The notes beneath the pieces were generated by a model, which did not search any database, was not told the DNA's origin, and saw only the letters and a list, made by a program, of their open reading frames with translations. Below are positions 2,708 to 55,728 of a stretch of DNA of 56,553 bases, one piece after another. Location of the stretch: the NCBI GenBank assembly GCA_035403785.1, contig DAONFW010000006.1, positions 1 to 56,553 of the forward strand. Reading direction: 5' to 3'. Source of the stretch: Minisyncoccota bacterium (GTDB taxonomy: Bacteria; Patescibacteriota; Minisyncoccia; Phycocordibacterales; UBA9973). Within the stretch, counting starts at the first letter, position 1. Each line of letters opens with the position of its first letter. The translations under genes were made by a program, and so were the position numbers.

Positions 2708-4633
2708 ATGGATAAAAATTCACGCAAAAAATACGTTAGAAGAAAAATCCAAGATATAAAAAGTAGGGCAAAACACGCTGCTGTTTATTCAAAAAAACTT
2801 ATTTCTCCGGTTTTTGGTTTTGGATTAAAAATGTCTGGTTTAATTTTATTTGGAATTTTATTGATTTTAGGAATTGTTAAGATTTTCTTTTTTGAAATAA
2901 AATATCAAGACAAGTTTTATCCGGGTGTCTATGTAGCAAATGAAAAAGTTGGAGGTTTAACATATGATGAGGCCGTAATACGTTTTAAGGAAAAGGTAGA
3001 AAATTTTAGAGCTAACGGAGTTAATGTCGAGATTGAAAACTCGCAGGGACTAAAAAAGAAAATAAATGTTCCAACTTTGACTGCTGGTTTGGCTGCGGAT
3101 AATACGATTGAATATTTTTTAATAAATGGATGGGAAAAGGATTTACAAAAAGCCTATCAGTGGGGACGTGGAAGCAGTGTTTTTCGTGATGTTTGGCAAC
3201 AAATAATTCTAATATTTACTAATAAAAATTTTGATTTTTCAAATTCTGTTCAAAAAGAAGCTGTTAGTTCTTTGCTTGAAAGTGAATTGAATAGTTTTTT
3301 AACAAAAAGCAAATCAGCTGAATTTTCTTTTGTCAAAAATAAACTAGTTATTTCTAAAGAGCAAGTCGGGGAGATTTTAAACAAAGAAGAAATTCTAAAT
3401 ATTTTGGCAAAAAAAGTTTCGCAGTTTGATACAGATATAGTTTATTTTAAAACCCAAGAAGATATTTCTGTTGTTAAAAAAGTTGATTTGGAAAAACACG
3501 CAACTTTTGTAGAAAATTTTGGAAATAAAATCAATTTCTCGTTTTTTTATAATGGTTTCAGGTGGTATGTAAAAGGAGCCAAATTTGTTAATTGGCTTAC
3601 TATTAACAGTAATAGTGAAAATTTAAATAGCGGTGAAAAAGAAATTTATTTAAATAAAAATAAATTAGAAAGTTATTTTTCTGAGAATATTGATAGACTA
3701 ATAGAAAATCCTCCAAGAAATAGTAGATTTGAAATAAGAAATGGAAAAATATTTGAGCTTGTTTCAAGCAAAAAAGGTAATGCGATAGATATTGAAAAAG
3801 TAGCTGAAGAAATAAATAAAATAATTAGTGATTCTAAAAACAATCTAGATCTTCAGAAAAAAACTTTTGATATACATATCGAGACAATTCAAATTGAGCC
3901 AAAAATAACCAAAGATTTGTTGTTAAAATATGAAATCAAAGATTTGATAGGTCGCGCTTCTACAAGTTTTGATGGAAGTAGTGCTGACCGCGAACATAAT
4001 ATAAGAACTGGAGTTTCTGCGATAAACGGAATTTTACTCGCGCCTGGTGAGGAGTTTTCTACTGTAAATTCTATTGGTCATGTTTCAGAGAAAGAAGGAT
4101 ATAGAAAAGAAACTGTAATTAAACAGAATAAGACAACGAAAGAATTTGGCGGTGGTTTGTGTCAGGTTGCGACAACTTTGTTTAGATTAGCTTTGAATAC
4201 TGGTCTGCCCATTACAGAAAGAATCAATCATCGTTTTACTGTGCCTTATTACGATCCGCCAGGTTTAGACGCAACTATTTATGGACCACATCCTGATCTG
4301 CGTTTTGTGAATGATACAGGAAATTATGTTTTGTTGCAGGCCAGAGTAGAAGGTAAAAAAATAATTATGGAATTTTACGGTAGAAAAGATGGTAGAATCG
4401 CAGAAGTTTCTAAACCAGTTGAATCAAATTGGATACCAGCACCAGCAACAAAATATATACCGACAAATTATCTTTCTGTTGGTCAGGTTAAATGTTCTGA
4501 AACACCACATTCAGGTTTAACCACTGATGTTTTGTATACAGTTAAATATCCCGATGGTATAACAAAACAAAGAAATTTTAGAAGTATTTATCAACCATGG
4601 CAAAAAGTTTGCTTGATCGGAGTTAGTTATTAG
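2708..4633 (+). CDS. VanW/YoaR-like membrane-anchored protein
   Basis: N-terminal TM helix. The C-terminal region has a VanW-type signature (GGGLCQVATTLFRLALNTGLPITERINH). Confidence 0.75.
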   Translation: MDKNSRKKYVRRKIQDIKSRAKHAAVYSKKLISPVFGFGLKMSGLILFGILLILGIVKIFFFEIKYQDKFYPGVYVANEKVGGLTYDEAVIRFKEKVENFRANGVNVEIENSQGLKKKINVPTLTAGLAADNTIEYFLINGWEKDLQKAYQWGRGSSVFRDVWQQIILIFTNKNFDFSNSVQKEAVSSLLESELNSFLTKSKSAEFSFVKNKLVISKEQVGEILNKEEILNILAKKVSQFDTDIVYFKTQEDISVVKKVDLEKHATFVENFGNKINFSFFYNGFRWYVKGAKFVNWLTINSNSENLNSGEKEIYLNKNKLESYFSENIDRLIENPPRNSRFEIRNGKIFELVSSKKGNAIDIEKVAEEINKIISDSKNNLDLQKKTFDIHIETIQIEPKITKDLLLKYEIKDLIGRASTSFDGSSADREHNIRTGVSAINGILLAPGEEFSTVNSIGHVSEKEGYRKETVIKQNKTTKEFGGGLCQVATTLFRLALNTGLPITERINHRFTVPYYDPPGLDATIYGPHPDLRFVNDTGNYVLLQARVEGKKIIMEFYGRKDGRIAEVSKPVESNWIPAPATKYIPTNYLSVGQVKCSETPHSGLTTDVLYTVKYPDGITKQRNFRSIYQPWQKVCLIGVSY

Positions 4634-6036: not shown

Positions 6037-6938
6037 TTTTTAAAAACTTTTTGAAAAATATCTTTTTTGTCTGTTTTACCAGGATCAAACCAAATTATTT
6101 CTTTATCTCTTTTGAACCAAGCCATTTGGCGTTTTGCAAATTTATTTATTTCAGAGTTTAATTTTTCTAAATATTCTTTTTTGGTTAATTTTTTCTGCAG
6201 ATATAACGCAGTGTATCTGTATTCAAGACCCAGTTCTTCCATGCGTTTCCAACTTAAGCCATTTTTGTGTAGATTTCTAATTTCTCGCAACATGCCGGCT
6301 TTGATTCTATTGTTTAATCTTTTCTCTATGCGCTCTTTCAGAACATCATTCGGCATTGTTAGACCAATTTTTATAAATTCATATTTTTGATCTTTTTTAT
6401 TCTTAGAATCAGCAAGTTTTGGCACTTTGCCGAGAGCTTTTGCGATTTCAATAGCTCTGATTAATCTGACTTTATTTTTAGCATCAATATTTTTTGCGCG
6501 AGATTTGTCTAATTTTTTTAACATTTCAAAAAGTTGGCTAGCAGTTTTTTTATTTAAACTAGCTCTAAGTTTTTCATTCGGTGGAACTTCAGGAAAAGTC
6601 ACATTATTAATAACAGAATCAATATAAAATCCCGTGCCACCACAGATTATTGGCACTTTGTTTCTTGAAATTATTTCTGTTATTTTCTGATCAGCTAATT
6701 CTTTGAATTCCGCAACCGTGAATCTGTTTTTTGCATTTGCCACGTCTAATAGAAAGTGGGGGATTTTCTGCATTTCTTTTTTTGTGATTTTACCCGTGCC
6801 CAAATCAAGACCAGTATAAACTTGCCTAGAATCAGCAGAAATCACTTCTCCGCCTATTTTCTGCGCAATAAACACGGCCAAATCGCTCTTTCCAGTAGCT
6901 GTTGGACCTAAAATTACGATTATTTTTGGTTTGGGCAT
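6033..6938 (-). CDS. miaA: tRNA dimethylallyltransferase
   Basis: P-loop ILGPTATGKS at the N-terminus, IPP-transferase-like core, 301 aa. Confidence 0.9.
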   Translation of the reverse strand: MPKPKIIVILGPTATGKSDLAVFIAQKIGGEVISADSRQVYTGLDLGTGKITKKEMQKIPHFLLDVANAKNRFTVAEFKELADQKITEIISRNKVPIICGGTGFYIDSVINNVTFPEVPPNEKLRASLNKKTASQLFEMLKKLDKSRAKNIDAKNKVRLIRAIEIAKALGKVPKLADSKNKKDQKYEFIKIGLTMPNDVLKERIEKRLNNRIKAGMLREIRNLHKNGLSWKRMEELGLEYRYTALYLQKKLTKKEYLEKLNSEINKFAKRQMAWFKRDKEIIWFDPGKTDKKDIFQKVFKN

Positions 6939-6980
6939 AAAATTAGCATAACATAAAATTTGAGGTTATAATAAATAATA

Positions 6981-7466
6981 ATGTTAGAAAAAATTAGAGA
7001 ACTTGTGAAAAGTGAAGCGGAACAAGATGACTGGAAATATCATATTATTCCAGTTGTTAACTACGCAAAAAAATTAGCAAAGATATTAAAAGTTGACGAG
7101 GAGATTGTTGAATTAGCTGCTTTATTGCATGATATTGGAAGATTAAAATTTGGTGGAGAAAATCACGATATTACAGGTATCCCTGAAGCTGAAAAAATTT
7201 TAAAAGAACATAATTATCCACAAGATACAATAGATGAAATAAAACATTGCGTTGAATCTCATAGAGGAAGTAAAGACCTTATTCCTAAAACAATTTTAGC
7301 AAAGATAATTGCTAATGCAGACGCAATGGCACATTTTGATGTATTACCAATTTTTTTCTATTGGCGTTCCAAGAAGGATAGTTTTGAAGAAGTGCTCAAG
7401 TGGACTGATGAAAAAATTGAACGAGATTGGAACAAAAAATCACACTTCCAGAAGCTAAAGAATTAA
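6981..7466 (+). CDS. HD-domain phosphohydrolase (C-terminus possibly frameshifted)
   Basis: HD motif LHDIGR and a later H..D (ANADAMAHFD). An alternative frame continues plausibly from the A6 tract at 7434-7439 to TAA at 7523-7525. Confidence 0.8.
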   Translation: MLEKIRELVKSEAEQDDWKYHIIPVVNYAKKLAKILKVDEEIVELAALLHDIGRLKFGGENHDITGIPEAEKILKEHNYPQDTIDEIKHCVESHRGSKDLIPKTILAKIIANADAMAHFDVLPIFFYWRSKKDSFEEVLKWTDEKIERDWNKKSHFQKLKN

Positions 7467-45241: not shown

Positions 45242-46501
45242 TTATTTGGGAAAATAAGTAGAAGGATTAAGATAAGCGTTTGTAGCAGCGATTGGTTGAG
45301 TCAGAGTTTTTCCTGGACAAGCTTTACTTGGCATTGATTCTACGTTAACCGCATCTTTTGGATAAACAGAAATATGCAAATGTGGCCCTGTAGAATAACC
45401 AGTGTTTCCAGAATATCCAACGATTTCGCCTCGAGAAACTTTTTGACCTTTACTTACTTTTATCAAAGACAAATGTCCATAAGTAGTAGCCAAACCGTTG
45501 TCATATTTTAACAAAATAAACTTACCAAAAGACGCACCAGCGCATGTAGCATCTGTATCTCCAGAACCTGCGACAAAACCATCTGCCGCGGCTCTTACCG
45601 GCGTGCCCACGGCCGCTCTCAAGTCCAAACCTCTATGAACCGTGCCCCATCTCGTTCCAAATGGCGAAGTTATATAAATAGAATCCAACGGCCAACTCAA
45701 AACGCCACTCTTCGGCAATTTTGATTTATCCAAAATATATTTAAGTTGTGACTCATATTGGTCAACTTCTTTTTCGAGGGCTTCTTTTTCTGCCAATCTA
45801 TTTTTCAAAAGGGTTTGATAATTTGCTTCATTGTTTTTTGTTTGTGCTAATAATTTATTTTTTTCTGCAGCATTTTGATCAACAATTTTTTTCTGATCAG
45901 CCAATTTTGTTTTCAAGTTTTCAAGTTCAGTTCTAGCCAAAATACTTTCAGCACGAGAATCTTCCAAAACTATTTTATCTTGTTTTAAATCATTAATAAT
46001 CTCAATAAGTCTTTCTCTGACTGTTAAAATATTATCAACGTCGTTCCAAACATCTGAGAAATTATTTTTTGATAACAAAATTTCTGCCAATGAAAAATTT
46101 TCATATTCATCGCTGCGCTTAATATCTAATTTAATAGATTCTTTACTGTCATAAATAGCATCTTCTTTGTTTACAATCTGCGAACCTAAACTTTTTATTT
46201 TTAAATTAGTTTTATCTATTTTAACTTGAGTCACAGACATATCGGCAACTAATTTTTTTCGAGTTATTTCTAGTTCTTTTAAAGAATTTGCCAAAGAGTT
46301 TTTTTGTTGACCCAAACTATTTAATTCGTTTTGGTAAGATTTTATTTCTTGTTCAAGCTTTGCAATATCGTCATTTTTTTGATCAATTTTATCATTCAAT
46401 TCTTGAGCTGTTTCCGCATAGGAAAAAACCATAGGAACAATCAACAAAAGTCCTAATAGAAAAAACTTAAATTCCCTTTTGTAATCTTGAAATTGTCTCA
46501 T
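45242..46501 (-). CDS. M23 peptidase with long N-terminal coiled coil (EnvC-like)
   Basis: Signal/TM segment, ~230 aa of heptad-like repeats, and an M23 LytM domain (HRGLDLRA, GNTGYSTGPHLH). Confidence 0.85.
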   Translation of the reverse strand: MRQFQDYKREFKFFLLGLLLIVPMVFSYAETAQELNDKIDQKNDDIAKLEQEIKSYQNELNSLGQQKNSLANSLKELEITRKKLVADMSVTQVKIDKTNLKIKSLGSQIVNKEDAIYDSKESIKLDIKRSDEYENFSLAEILLSKNNFSDVWNDVDNILTVRERLIEIINDLKQDKIVLEDSRAESILARTELENLKTKLADQKKIVDQNAAEKNKLLAQTKNNEANYQTLLKNRLAEKEALEKEVDQYESQLKYILDKSKLPKSGVLSWPLDSIYITSPFGTRWGTVHRGLDLRAAVGTPVRAAADGFVAGSGDTDATCAGASFGKFILLKYDNGLATTYGHLSLIKVSKGQKVSRGEIVGYSGNTGYSTGPHLHISVYPKDAVNVESMPSKACPGKTLTQPIAATNAYLNPSTYFPK

Positions 46502-51792: not shown

Positions 51793-52686
51793 TTAAGATA
51801 ATATCACATTTATTAATTTTTCCATATCAGAAAATCTACCATCCATCGTAGAACCAAGCACAGTAACGGCAATTTCGTGTCCTTCTTTATTTTTCAAAAT
51901 AATACTTAAATTTCCACCAGCCAATTTTGTATAACCAGTCTTAGAAAACAGAAGATTTGGTATTTTATCAGCAAGAATATTAGTATTCTGAACATTATGC
52001 GTCACCCCTGTATTAGACTTTATTTTCAACTCAGAATAAGCGGTGTTTGAAAAAATTTCTGGAAAATTCTTAAGCGCATAAGCATTCATTTGGTTTATAT
52101 CTTTTGCTGAAGCATAAGCTCCCGAACTTGCTTCGTTAATATCTAATCCCGTTTCATTTCGAAAAGCAAAATTGGTCATCCCGATTGTCTCAGCTTTATT
52201 ATTCATTTTTTCTAAAAATTTTTCATCTCCTCTTGCAAGAGCGTTAGCTCCATCATTTGATGACTGAATTAAAGTAAATTTAATTAAATCAGAAACTTTC
52301 CATTTTTCATTTAACAAAAGACCGTTGTCCCCTTCTTTTGCTAAATCTTCTTTAATAATCTCAATTTGATCATCAAGTTTTTTATTATCTAAGACAACTA
52401 AAACTGTAAGCGTTTTTACAACAGAAGCTATCGGAAATCTTTTATACTGATTTCTTCCATAAATTTCTTTGTTTTCTGTAATATCATAAACAGAAAAAGC
52501 TTTTGCCTGAATTGGAATATTCGCATATTTATTTATAATCAACTGCTGTTTCTTTTCTTGCTCTTGTACTTGCTTTATAAACTTTTGATTGTTTCTGTGG
52601 TTAAAAAAACAAAACAAAATTGCCTCTACGGCAATTATGATTAATATAAAAAATAAAAGAAGCTTATTCTGTTTCCCCATTTTCAA
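51793..52686 (-). CDS. S11-family D-alanyl-D-alanine carboxypeptidase
   Basis: TM/signal segment and SxxK (ASVVKTL), SxN (SSNDGA) and KTG (SKTGYT) motifs. Confidence 0.85.
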   Translation of the reverse strand: MKMGKQNKLLLFFILIIIAVEAILFCFFNHRNNQKFIKQVQEQEKKQQLIINKYANIPIQAKAFSVYDITENKEIYGRNQYKRFPIASVVKTLTVLVVLDNKKLDDQIEIIKEDLAKEGDNGLLLNEKWKVSDLIKFTLIQSSNDGANALARGDEKFLEKMNNKAETIGMTNFAFRNETGLDINEASSGAYASAKDINQMNAYALKNFPEIFSNTAYSELKIKSNTGVTHNVQNTNILADKIPNLLFSKTGYTKLAGGNLSIILKNKEGHEIAVTVLGSTMDGRFSDMEKLINVILS

Positions 52687-53392: not shown

Positions 53393-54163
53393 TTATTCAT
53401 TAATTTCTAATACTATTTCTGTTTGTTCTATTTCTTCTTGCTCTTGTTCTTGCTTTTCTATTATTATATCTTCGAAATTACTTTCCTGCGCTGCGTTTAA
53501 TATTCCGTTACGTACAAGTTCTAGCATAGCAAGAAATCCGACAATTACAAAGACTTTTTCTTCTTTTGTCTGCACTTTTCCGGCAAATTCTCTAAAGTTC
53601 ATTTTGATAGAATTCTGAATTCTTTCTGTTAGCTTATCAATCATTTCATCAATACTAATAACTTTTTTAACTTCAACTTCTGGCAGAAAAATTTTCTTTG
53701 GAATTCTACCTAAAGCATCCGAAGCAAAAGCCATCATGTTTTCTTTTGTAATTCTTTCGTCTGGCAAAAATACAAGAAAATCATTTTTTCTTTCGTTCGG
53801 CAAAAAAATCATTTTCTGACCAAAAATTTCTTTTATATTTCTTGAAAGATTTTTATAAAATTCATACTGCTTTAATCTGTCTTCTAGATTTTTTATATCA
53901 GTCTCTTCTTCGTCTGTTAAGTTTAAATTCGGGAGTAAAGATTTTGATTTAATTAAAATCAAAGTAGCAGCAACAACTACAAAACTAGAAATTTCAGCCG
54001 GTGATAAATTCTGTAAACTATTCACATAATTCAAATAATCCTCTGTAACCTGCGCAAGTGAGATTTCGTTTATAAATAATTTTCTATTTTCTACCAAATT
54101 TAAAAGCAGTCCAAACGGACCTTCAAAATTATCTGTTTTTACTTTATAAATCTGCTCTTCCAC
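53393..54163 (-). CDS. scpA: segregation and condensation protein A
   Basis: FEGPFGLLLNLVENRKL kleisin N-terminus. A GTG start at 54163 is preferred because TGTTATAAT (hexamer 54175-54170, minus) lies 6 nt upstream. The track's longer N-terminus translates the promoter. Confidence 0.85.
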   Translation of the reverse strand: MEEQIYKVKTDNFEGPFGLLLNLVENRKLFINEISLAQVTEDYLNYVNSLQNLSPAEISSFVVVAATLILIKSKSLLPNLNLTDEEETDIKNLEDRLKQYEFYKNLSRNIKEIFGQKMIFLPNERKNDFLVFLPDERITKENMMAFASDALGRIPKKIFLPEVEVKKVISIDEMIDKLTERIQNSIKMNFREFAGKVQTKEEKVFVIVGFLAMLELVRNGILNAAQESNFEDIIIEKQEQEQEEIEQTEIVLEINE

Positions 54164-54235
54164 ATTTAAATTATAACAAAATAAGGCTTTTTTAAAAACC
54201 CTTGACAAAAAAATTTATCTTAGTATTATTTATAT

Positions 54236-54353
54236 GTATCTTCTTTCTTTTTTTGTTTTTTTACTGGGTGCTTCCCCACACCCAAAGAGCTACGTCGATT
54301 CAACGTAGCAAACCATCCAGGCCTCGCTTCCCTAAAAAGAAGTGGGGCTTTTT
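54236..54353 (+). ncRNA. unclassified small RNA candidate (~115 nt)
   Basis: Plus-strand promoter TTGACA (54202-54207), 16-nt spacer, TATTAT (54224-54229). Terminator GCCUCGCUUC (54321-54330) / GAAGUGGGGC (54339-54348) plus U5. The helices contain G-U pairs that become A-C mismatches on the minus strand. Confidence 0.55.
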
Positions 54354-55728
54354 ATTTGTATTCTTCTATAAATTTGACTAAAGCTGCAACCGGTGAACCA
54401 ACTGCACCAGCTGCTAGATTATCTCCAGAAATAGAAACCATCCTAGGTGCAATATCTATATGCAGCCAATTTTCATCTTTTATAAACTGCTCTAAAAATT
54501 TTGCAGCGTAAATCACACCGCCAGAACGCGATTCTTTATTGTGAATATTAGTCCAATCACCCAAACTGCCTTTTATCTCATTTTCATATTCTTCCCAAAG
54601 TGGAAACTGCCAAAAATATTCTCCAGTTTTCTCTCCAGCTGTCTTAATTTTATCAGATAAAAAATCTTCACTTGAAAAAACAGCAGAAGCTCTTTCGCCC
54701 AATGCAACGACAGCCGCGCCAGTCAAAGTCGCAACATCTATTACAACTTCTGGCTTATATTTTTTTGAATAAGTTAAAGCATCGGCCAAAATTATTCTTC
54801 CTTCTGCGTCTGTGTTCAAAACTTCAATAGTCTGTCCAGACATAGAATAAATTACATCGCCCGGTCTGTAACTTTTTCCCGATGGCATATTCTCAACAGA
54901 CGGAATAAGAGCTATCACATTCTTTTTTAATTTCATTTTTGCACACAAAGCAACAGCATGAATCACAGCGGACCCACCAGACATATCCATATTCATTCCA
55001 GCCAGAGAGTTATTTGGTTTCAAATTTATTCCACCAGTGTCAAAAGTTACACCTTTTCCAACCAAAACAATCGGCTTTTCTGATTTCTTACCACCAAAAT
55101 ATTCTATAATTATAAATTTAGATTCTTCGTCTGATCCGCGACCAACAGATAAAATAGCGCGCATATTTTGTTTTTCCATTTCTTTTTCACCCAAAACAGT
55201 CACTTTCACTGGTAAATTTTTTACCGCCTCTTTTGCCTTCTGCGCTAGAATTCCTGGCGTCATGTCGCCACCTGGCATATTTGATAAAGTTCTAGTTTTA
55301 TTAACTTCTTCTGCAATCACGTGCCCTTTTAAGATAGCTTTTTCTGTTTCTTTAAAAACGCCCAAAACATTTACTTCTTTTACAAAAGTACCTTCTTTCT
55401 TTGATTTATATTCAAGAAATTCATAATTTGCAAAATCCAACTGTGAGCCAATTATTTCACCAAGTTCAGCGTCAGAAATTTTTATATCTTTAAATTTAAA
55501 ATCATTAAAATCAAAACAAATCTTTTCAGCTTTTGCTTTCTTTGCAATTAAAATAACTTTTCTAATCAGCAAAAATAATTTGCGCAAAGTCATTTTTTCA
55601 TCGCATTTTACAAAAAGAGTTTTTCTGCCGTCTTCTTTGACTATTTCATCTTGATTCTTGCTACCCACAGAAACAAAAACAAATTCTTTTTCATTTATAT
55701 TATTTAATGTTTTGAAAGTTATTTTCAT
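54352..55728 (-). CDS. pepA: M17 leucyl aminopeptidase
   Basis: NTDAEGRIILADAL signature plus VGKGVTFDTGG, 458 aa. Confidence 0.93.
   Translation of the reverse strand: MKITFKTLNNINEKEFVFVSVGSKNQDEIVKEDGRKTLFVKCDEKMTLRKLFLLIRKVILIAKKAKAEKICFDFNDFKFKDIKISDAELGEIIGSQLDFANYEFLEYKSKKEGTFVKEVNVLGVFKETEKAILKGHVIAEEVNKTRTLSNMPGGDMTPGILAQKAKEAVKNLPVKVTVLGEKEMEKQNMRAILSVGRGSDEESKFIIIEYFGGKKSEKPIVLVGKGVTFDTGGINLKPNNSLAGMNMDMSGGSAVIHAVALCAKMKLKKNVIALIPSVENMPSGKSYRPGDVIYSMSGQTIEVLNTDAEGRIILADALTYSKKYKPEVVIDVATLTGAAVVALGERASAVFSSEDFLSDKIKTAGEKTGEYFWQFPLWEEYENEIKGSLGDWTNIHNKESRSGGVIYAAKFLEQFIKDENWLHIDIAPRMVSISGDNLAAGAVGSPVAALVKFIEEYK

Follow-up and report, generated by a model that had tools for sequence, protein, structure and literature searches.

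A putative lineage-restricted small RNA gene in the scpA–pepA spacer of a Patescibacteria genome

In a contig of an uncultured Minisyncoccota bacterium (Patescibacteriota; GenBank assembly GCA_035403785.1, contig DAONFW010000006.1), the scpA and pepA genes are separated by a spacer of unusual composition. The window, by which we mean the whole stretch of 56,553 nucleotides (nt) that was analyzed, is 32% in GC content, and the scpA–pepA block is 52%, as expected from the GC-rich block reported by the initial annotation of this DNA. Does the block encode a product of its own, and on which strand? Our computational analysis established the anatomy and strand of the block, showed that it has no coding potential and that its sequence is conserved, and indicated that its structure is conserved as well. 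In our view, the block is probably a functional small RNA (sRNA) gene on the plus strand, about 120 nt in length, non-coding, independently transcribed and restricted to one lineage. The self-contained sRNA unit proposed initially, back-to-back with a leaderless scpA promoter, is supported.

Anatomy of the plus-strand unit

The features of the unit are as follows; L018 and L027 are two related loci that are described in the next section.

54202–54229, plus strand: sigma-70-type promoter with 11 of 12 consensus matches, consisting of −35 TTGACA (54202–54207), a 16-nt spacer and −10 TATTAT (54224–54229)
54236–54356, plus strand: predicted RNA of ~120 nt, from the putative start G54236 to the terminator U-tract, based on the geometry of promoter and terminator
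54236–54264, plus strand: unstructured U-rich 5′ tail GUAUCUUCUUUCUUUUUUUGUUUUUUUAC, unpaired probability ~0.8–0.9
54265–54284, plus strand: hairpin 1, stem UGGGUG/CACCCA, pair probability 0.82–0.998
54271–54278, plus strand: C-rich 8-nt loop of hairpin 1, CUUCCCCA
54289–54309, plus strand: hairpin 2, stem GCUACGU/ACGUAGC and loop CGAUUCA, from the predicted fold and pair probabilities
54310–54318, plus strand: C-rich linker AAACCAUCC (UAAUCC in L018 and CCAUUCCC in L027), unpaired at ~0.9 in all three RNAs
54319–54357, plus strand: intrinsic terminator with a 12-bp stem (six G-C pairs), an 8-nt loop and U5AU3

All features listed in the initial annotation, promoter and terminator included, were found at the positions that it gave. 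The putative start, G54236, is the 7th base past the −10 element. Promoters with at least 11 of 12 matches occur eight times in the whole window, compared to 2.5 ± 1.5 in Markov simulations, which corresponds to ~3-fold enrichment. With this many matches in the window, the promoter match by itself is no more than suggestive; what counts is its conservation in relatives. The arms of the terminator, GCCTCGCTTC (54321–54330) and GAAGTGGGGC (54339–54348), form two G-U pairs, and the core reads GCCUCGCUUC/GAAGUGGGGC as RNA. The stem is followed by TTTTTATTT at 54349–54357 (UUUUUAUUU in the RNA), which overlaps the pepA stop codon. By a consensus scan, the surrounding 800-nt region contains four terminator-like sites, with 0.5 expected.

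The plus-strand RNA folds into three separate hairpins with a free energy of −36.3 kcal/mol (z = −4.09), and none of 200 shuffled sequences folded as well. This fold differs in part from the one drawn at first. Hairpin 2 was correctly recognized, and it shows compensatory changes against L027. The helix CUGGGUG/CAUCCAG, thought to close a domain around hairpin 2, can be written at 54264–54270 and 54314–54320; however, it competes with hairpin 1, its pair probability is ~0, and forcing it gave a fold of −31.6 kcal/mol, 4.7 kcal/mol above the best one. Six of its seven pairs are possible in L018, and the equivalent segments of L027 can form only three of seven. The pairing GGGUG/CACCC does exist, but not as the mere alternative that it was taken for: it belongs to hairpin 1 (UGGGUG/CACCCA) and is the conserved one. 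The suggested switch between CCCCAC and GUGGGG found no support, its pair probability being 0 and the L018 and L027 terminators having no GUGGGG. The polypyrimidine stretch of the 5′ tail is present in the window, but it is not conserved; the leaders in L018 and L027 are U/A-rich, similar in length and different in sequence. Apart from a UUUUUGUU-like run of the kind expected in AT-rich DNA, the three tails have little in common.

The element resembles no catalogued RNA family. At the gathering threshold, Rfam 15 identified only three tRNAs in the whole window, and in a permissive scan of 54100–54450 the best hits had E-values of 0.47 or worse and scores far below threshold; the Rfam comparison that the initial annotation had called for thus gave no family match. 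No relevant family was found when 15 related loci were scanned against Rfam, and ARAGORN detected neither tRNA nor transfer-messenger RNA (tmRNA) at the element. The sole open reading frame (ORF) listed over the block (54202–54381, 59 amino acids) starts at the −35 element and runs through the terminator. A repeated or mobile element, such as a miniature inverted-repeat transposable element (MITE) or repetitive extragenic palindrome (REP), was considered and rejected: the element is single-copy in the 56.5-kb window, and a covariance model search of 243 kb found one copy per carrier locus.

The unit is flanked by two minus-strand genes with the following features.

53393–54163, minus strand: scpA, GTG start at 54163–54161, ScpA confirmed by Pfam
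54178–54170, minus strand: extended −10 element of scpA, TGTTATAAT, followed by 6 nt and then GTG at 54163
54352–55728, minus strand: pepA, encoding an M17 aminopeptidase, confirmed by Pfam
54354–54352, minus strand: pepA stop codon TAA, inside the terminator U-tract

This arrangement, as read from the sequence, supports a leaderless scpA mRNA whose promoter lies back-to-back with the sRNA promoter. scpA, scpB and dac form the adjacent operon, in which dac, the gene for an S11 DD-carboxypeptidase, is third in order. Among 54 crude gene calls in the window, Shine-Dalgarno (SD)-like motifs are scarce (GGAG upstream of three genes, GGAGG upstream of one), and A-rich leaders are found upstream of the genes. 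Together with leaderless scpA, the rarity of SD motifs suggests that translation initiation is largely SD-independent. The top GC stretch of the window lies at 45515–45682 (64% over 80 nt), apparently within coding sequence.

Homologues and the variable scpA–pepA junction

The loci collected on the basis of PepA come from Patescibacteria, namely Paceibacterota/Nomurabacteria-like metagenome-assembled genomes. Comparison of their scpA-upstream spacers, as the initial annotation had suggested, was informative: it gave one clear homologue in L018 and one probable homologue with compensatory changes in L027, and the element was absent from this spacer in other close relatives. These closer relatives were reached by way of ScpA and PepA homologues and the contigs that encode them. 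L017, from JGI 3300025867, is identical in sequence to the window. L018, of which ScpA is 86–88% and PepA 90% identical to the window proteins, carries its homologue abutting the pepA stop. In the core, from hairpin 1 to hairpin 2, 44 of 50 positions (88%) are identical (blastn E = 9e-7); at four-fold degenerate sites, pepA and scpA of the same two genomes are only 58–63% identical. At the level of sequence comparison, this shows purifying selection on the hairpin core relative to neighbouring synonymous sites. The hairpin 1 stem is identical in L018, with the loop CUCCCCA; the terminator is of other sequence, CCCUGUUUCAUG.../...CAUGAACAGGG, followed by U6.

L018 also contains a 1.07-kb IS30-like element (~1830–2910), inserted in the leader, between the conserved promoter and the sRNA homologue. 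Its transposase is 344 amino acids in length, with an HTH_38 and a weak rve domain. The ends of the element are perfect 11-nt inverted repeats (AAGCAGAACAC/GTGTTCTGCTT), and the junction recurs in a second sample, L019.

In L027 (ScpA 82–84% identical), three units stand in tandem upstream of scpA: a unit that we call unit 1, a unit 2 with its own promoter, and a third promoter with a structured RNA. Unit 2 has a TTGACT-N16-TATACT promoter, a ~30-nt leader and the three-hairpin layout. Its hairpin 1, GUGAGC/GCUCAC, has the C-rich loop GCCCUCAU, and five of the six pairs are altered on both sides compared to the window. Its hairpin 2, CAGCCACAG/CUGUGGUUG, retains the frame AGC..AC/GU.G and differs by three compensatory pairs (U-A to C-G, G-C to A-U and U-A to G-C). 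The terminator lies at the same position as in the window and L018, begins like that of L018 and not like that of the window (CCCUGUUUC.../...CAGGG), and is followed by U6. The sequence match of unit 2 is weak: a full-length nhmmer match to L018 reached only E = 0.11, and the window gave none. On the basis of its position, orientation, size and architecture, unit 2 is a probable homologue of the window element.

Folded one by one, the RNAs of the window, L018 and L027 all form this set of three hairpins. In each of them, loop 1, which is C-rich (CUUCCCCA, CUCCCCA and GCCCUCAU, respectively), and the C-rich linker (CCAUCC, AUCC and CCAUUCCC) are unpaired at ~0.9. In a manual structural alignment, compensatory double changes were found in 5/6 pairs of hairpin 1, 3/9 of hairpin 2 and 3/8 of the terminator core. 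RNAalifold still recovered the three hairpins from a crude MAFFT alignment; it counted five pairs with double changes, compared to 11 by hand, in three sequences, one of which (L027) is no more than a probable homologue. The pairs were counted by hand because the MAFFT alignment mis-registers hairpins 1 and 2 of L027. The covariance model of the three sequences, which was trained on this same alignment, found only those three copies in the 243 kb (E = 1e-17 to 1e-19). Other searches were negative. The element was found in none of 16 relatives at 69–76% identity in the PepA-based genome collection. A pattern scan of viral contigs gave two matches, both by chance, in high-GC coding sequence. A pattern scan of metagenomes gave only a chance match in a high-GC coding region and is uninformative, as the collection did not yield even the JGI contig of the window itself.

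In relatives that have kept pepA next to scpA with an empty slot (L001, L010, L014 and L026), the gap is only 6–20 nt. An outward promoter, TTGAC(A/T), a 16–18 nt spacer and TA(T/A)A(C/T)T, is kept beside the scpA start in six lineages; it lies at the same distance from that start in L018/L019, L020, L021, L027 and L028. The arrangement TGn-TAnAAT, 6 nt and GTG or ATG on the scpA side is common to L018, L020, L021 and L028. The junction with its back-to-back promoter pair was examined at the following positions.

Window: 54161–54229
L018: 2900–3001
L020: 2672–3001
L021: 2894–3001
L027: 392–643
L028: 3560–3656

What lies beyond the outward promoter varies: a ~230-nt GC-rich RNA unit and then an MFS transporter gene in L020, the gene for a 115-residue secreted protein in L021/L022, a CMAS-type methyltransferase gene in L029, and, in L028, a 280-nt unit 1 with another, dissimilar hairpin-rich unit behind it. 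Every filled slot is closed at the pepA stop by a terminator in plus orientation. Judging from these gene contents, the closer relatives have a hyper-variable cargo slot at the scpA–pepA junction. Strong support for plus-strand transcription in the window comes from the conservation of this promoter and from the direction in which its cargo lies.

Several further candidate RNA units are present in the relatives.

L020 ~2690–2920, L027 ~290–585 and L028 ~3290–3570, minus strand: unit 1, 230–300 nt from promoter to terminator
L027 1–115, minus strand: third promoter, TTGACT-N17-TAGTAT, driving another structured RNA
L028 3110–3290, minus strand: another promoter-hairpin-terminator unit at the position of the window element, which does not align with it
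L006 5922–6140, minus strand: TTGACT-N17-TATTAT promoter, ~190-nt multi-hairpin RNA and strong terminator, divergent from a membrane-protein gene

Unit 1 contains a small ORF of 29–37 amino acids (MKN/MKK...WP(P/T)G...) that stops just before UGAUCC; past it lie a conserved GC-rich structure with the invariant 12-mer GGGCCTGCCATG and then the terminator. It has no Rfam match, and a motif search found none in the window. The third RNA of L027 contains a 10-bp closing stem (GUAGUUUUGG/CCAAAACUAC), and an inner 9-bp hairpin with a GGGG loop; the contig ends before its 3′ end. The second unit of L028 is built of GGCAG/CUGCC, GCGUUA/UAACGC and a CCUCAUACC.../...GGUAUGAGG terminator. The L006 unit is the covariance-model match of weakest significance (E = 0.034), and such units occur elsewhere in these genomes. 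Like the window element, all these units have this type of promoter, GC-rich hairpins set in AT-rich DNA and an intrinsic terminator, and none matches Rfam; except for the L006 unit, they also share its orientation relative to scpA. Different from it, they show no detectable homology to its sequence, and unit 1 is longer and has the conserved small ORF.

Two further elements were noticed in these genomes. The 12-mer CCCGTTAGAGAT is present in four Paceibacterota genomes (L003 5454–5530, L011 5395–5406, L016 5433–5444 and L031 6747–6864) and absent from the window. It is intergenic, beside pepA or an MFS gene, occurs twice as inverted pairs 50–100 nt apart, and may be a conserved repeat or a terminator-like element. 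A conserved GC-rich palindromic block lies by MFS genes in AT-rich intergenic DNA of L005, L013 and L031 (~6900–7000); in L031 it reads GGTCTGGCCGGGGTTCGGGGCCCCGGAGAACTGAGGACCCGAG, L005 has the reverse complement of this, and the block has no Rfam match.

Competing readings, mechanism and target

If the block is an sRNA gene as we favour, transcription would start at about G54236 from the near-consensus sigma-70 promoter, back-to-back with the leaderless scpA promoter. The RNA would consist of a ~29-nt U-rich tail, hairpin 1 with its C-rich 8-nt loop, hairpin 2, the C-rich linker and the Rho-independent terminator. The transcript would end at the pepA stop codon; with the terminator at this position, the RNA is not expected to run antisense into pepA. 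It might act in trans, the unpaired C-rich loop 1, possibly together with the linker, pairing with a G-rich sequence at a translation start. By analogy with C-rich-loop sRNAs of Gram-positive bacteria, base pairing in trans is conceivable, and we regard it as a tentative proposal, less likely to be right than wrong. One candidate site was identified.

52673–52680, minus strand: AUGGGGAA, which can pair with UUCCCCA of loop 1, at the start codon of dac; a lead only

Among the 54 crude gene starts, dac gave the best duplex with loop 1, of −11.8 kcal/mol, with seven contiguous pairs (UUCCCCA:UGGGGAA). The dac start reads AUGGGGAAA (AUGGGG) in L018, which has the element, and AUGAAGAAA in L020 and L028, which do not; this co-occurrence may simply reflect shared ancestry. 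We consider dac an improbable specific target. Target prediction for the pyrimidine tail, which the initial annotation had proposed as a check, returned only low-complexity matches to A-rich leaders. On a broader proposal, the junction would be a site of promoter-flanked cassettes, RNA genes and some small-protein genes, that come, go and are shuffled through recombination between near-identical promoters, and the window RNA would be one of an undescribed Patescibacteria-specific set of regulatory RNAs and would repress dac translation via AUGGGGAA, in a genome with few SD sites; this combination is likewise improbable.

Several observations weigh against an sRNA gene acting in this way. The dac duplex is not significant window-wide, as a duplex of at least this order (−11 kcal/mol or better) is reached in ~1.6% of all 40-nt segments. 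Owing to the rarity of SD motifs, there would be few targets for SD masking, which weakens an anti-SD mechanism. The IS30-like element in L018 splits the sRNA homologue from its promoter. L027 is linked to the window element only by context, architecture and weak sequence similarity. The covariation carries little statistical weight, with two certain homologues and one probable homologue in one narrow clade. Finally, the same spacer has no such element in L020, L021, L026, L028, L029 and L001–L016; absence from the spacers of close relatives indicates that the element is dispensable.

This dispensability also fits the main rival explanation, that the block is a non-functional remnant: the cargo of the slot would have been deleted, and the outward promoter and the terminator shielding pepA would now enclose a transcribed untranslated region (UTR) with hairpins but no role. 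Slot content turns over fast (an MFS gene with an RNA unit, a secreted protein, a CMAS gene, an IS30-like element, or nothing), and a terminator at the pepA stop, as every filled slot has, is what such a remnant would keep. However, the core is 88% identical, compared to ~60% at neutral sites, even though the terminator sequence was replaced, and the hairpins appear to have been kept through compensatory changes. Moreover, the L027 unit is driven by a promoter of its own that lies past the terminator of another unit, which argues for a discrete gene rather than a leftover UTR. We consider a remnant unlikely, with a modest chance of being correct.

A functional minus strand is far less probable. 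In that case, a transcript reading through pepA, scpA and scpB would contain the block, as the 3′ UTR of pepA or as a leader that regulates scpA. Both neighbouring genes lie on this strand; in relatives with an empty slot the short gap makes their co-transcription probable, and pepA has no minus-strand terminator of its own, so that read-through antisense to the element is likely. The structure itself points the other way. The two G-U pairs of the window terminator become C-A mismatches on the minus strand, as do three to four in L027; the stem is then followed by CUGGAUGG, and no hairpin has a U-tract after it. A bidirectional terminator that also serves pepA was rejected for the same lack of a U-tract 3′ of the stem. 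The minus-strand fold is weaker (z = −2.45), and in its centroid most structure, including the long stem, is lost. The conserved leaderless promoter of scpA lies downstream of the block, and the slot genes of the relatives are on the plus strand behind the same promoter. As the initial annotation had argued from G-U asymmetry, the functional strand is thus plus: G-U pairs and U-tract occur together on this strand only, and promoter and terminator have the same orientation in the relatives.

There is very little to recommend a small hydrophobic peptide of the kind of a leaderless type I toxin, encoded by a 24-amino-acid ORF from ATG 54234 (MYLLSFFVFLLGASPHPKSYVDST). The organism does use leaderless mRNAs (scpA), L018 has GTG where the window has ATG, and the N-terminal half of the ORF is hydrophobic. 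However, this ATG is only 4 nt past the −10 element; the predicted start is the G of the ATG, the 7th base as for scpA, which leaves the codon outside the transcript, and the hydrophobicity reflects the poly-U tract. Two indels between the window and L018 shift the reading frame (SPHPKSYVDST versus PHTQNQLRDPT) despite the 88% nucleotide identity, which rules out a conserved peptide, and L027 has no corresponding ORF. An orphan riboswitch or attenuator, with the terminator as expression platform of a cis-acting leader, is just as improbable: structured GC-rich RNA does lie directly before a terminator, alternative pairings can be drawn, and L020 has a long structured RNA between this promoter and a transporter gene, but the window has no plus-strand gene downstream (pepA is convergent), the alternative pairings are of ~0 probability and not conserved, no Rfam riboswitch matches, and the L027 unit is followed by another promoter instead of a gene.

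Comparison with known small RNAs

Regulatory RNAs of Patescibacteria are essentially uncharted; a full-text literature search found no paper describing them in this group (Candidate Phyla Radiation). The present locus, with its strong promoter, defined terminator and conserved C-rich loop in a spacer that carries other cargo in relatives, offers a clean, testable example, and it illustrates how fast RNA genes of this sort can come and go when genomes are reduced. As it concerns one sRNA candidate of narrow range and familiar architecture, its importance is moderate.

RsaE/RoxS of Bacillales (RF01820) and 6C RNA of Actinobacteria (RF01066) are trans-encoded sRNAs with C-rich unpaired motifs. 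Like them, the window RNA is ~100 nt in size, has its own promoter and a Rho-independent terminator, and presents C-rich unpaired segments by means of its hairpins (loop 1 and the linker CCAUCC); pairing with G-rich translation starts is plausible for it as well. Different from them, it occurs in Patescibacteria with a very narrow distribution and matches neither RF01820 nor RF01066 even at E ≤ 10. Only one of its loops is consistently C-rich, and its host hardly uses SD motifs, which takes away most of the classic targets for SD masking.

Orphan promoter-terminator pairs are the criterion of classical sRNA gene finders. Like the generic intergenic sRNA genes found in this way, the window element has a promoter and a terminator ~120 nt apart, contains no ORF and is conserved in relatives. 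Unlike them, it sits in a hyper-variable cargo slot and, in L027, in tandem with other units. Taken together, these comparisons suggest that the element looks like a previously undescribed, narrowly distributed sRNA gene of familiar architecture.

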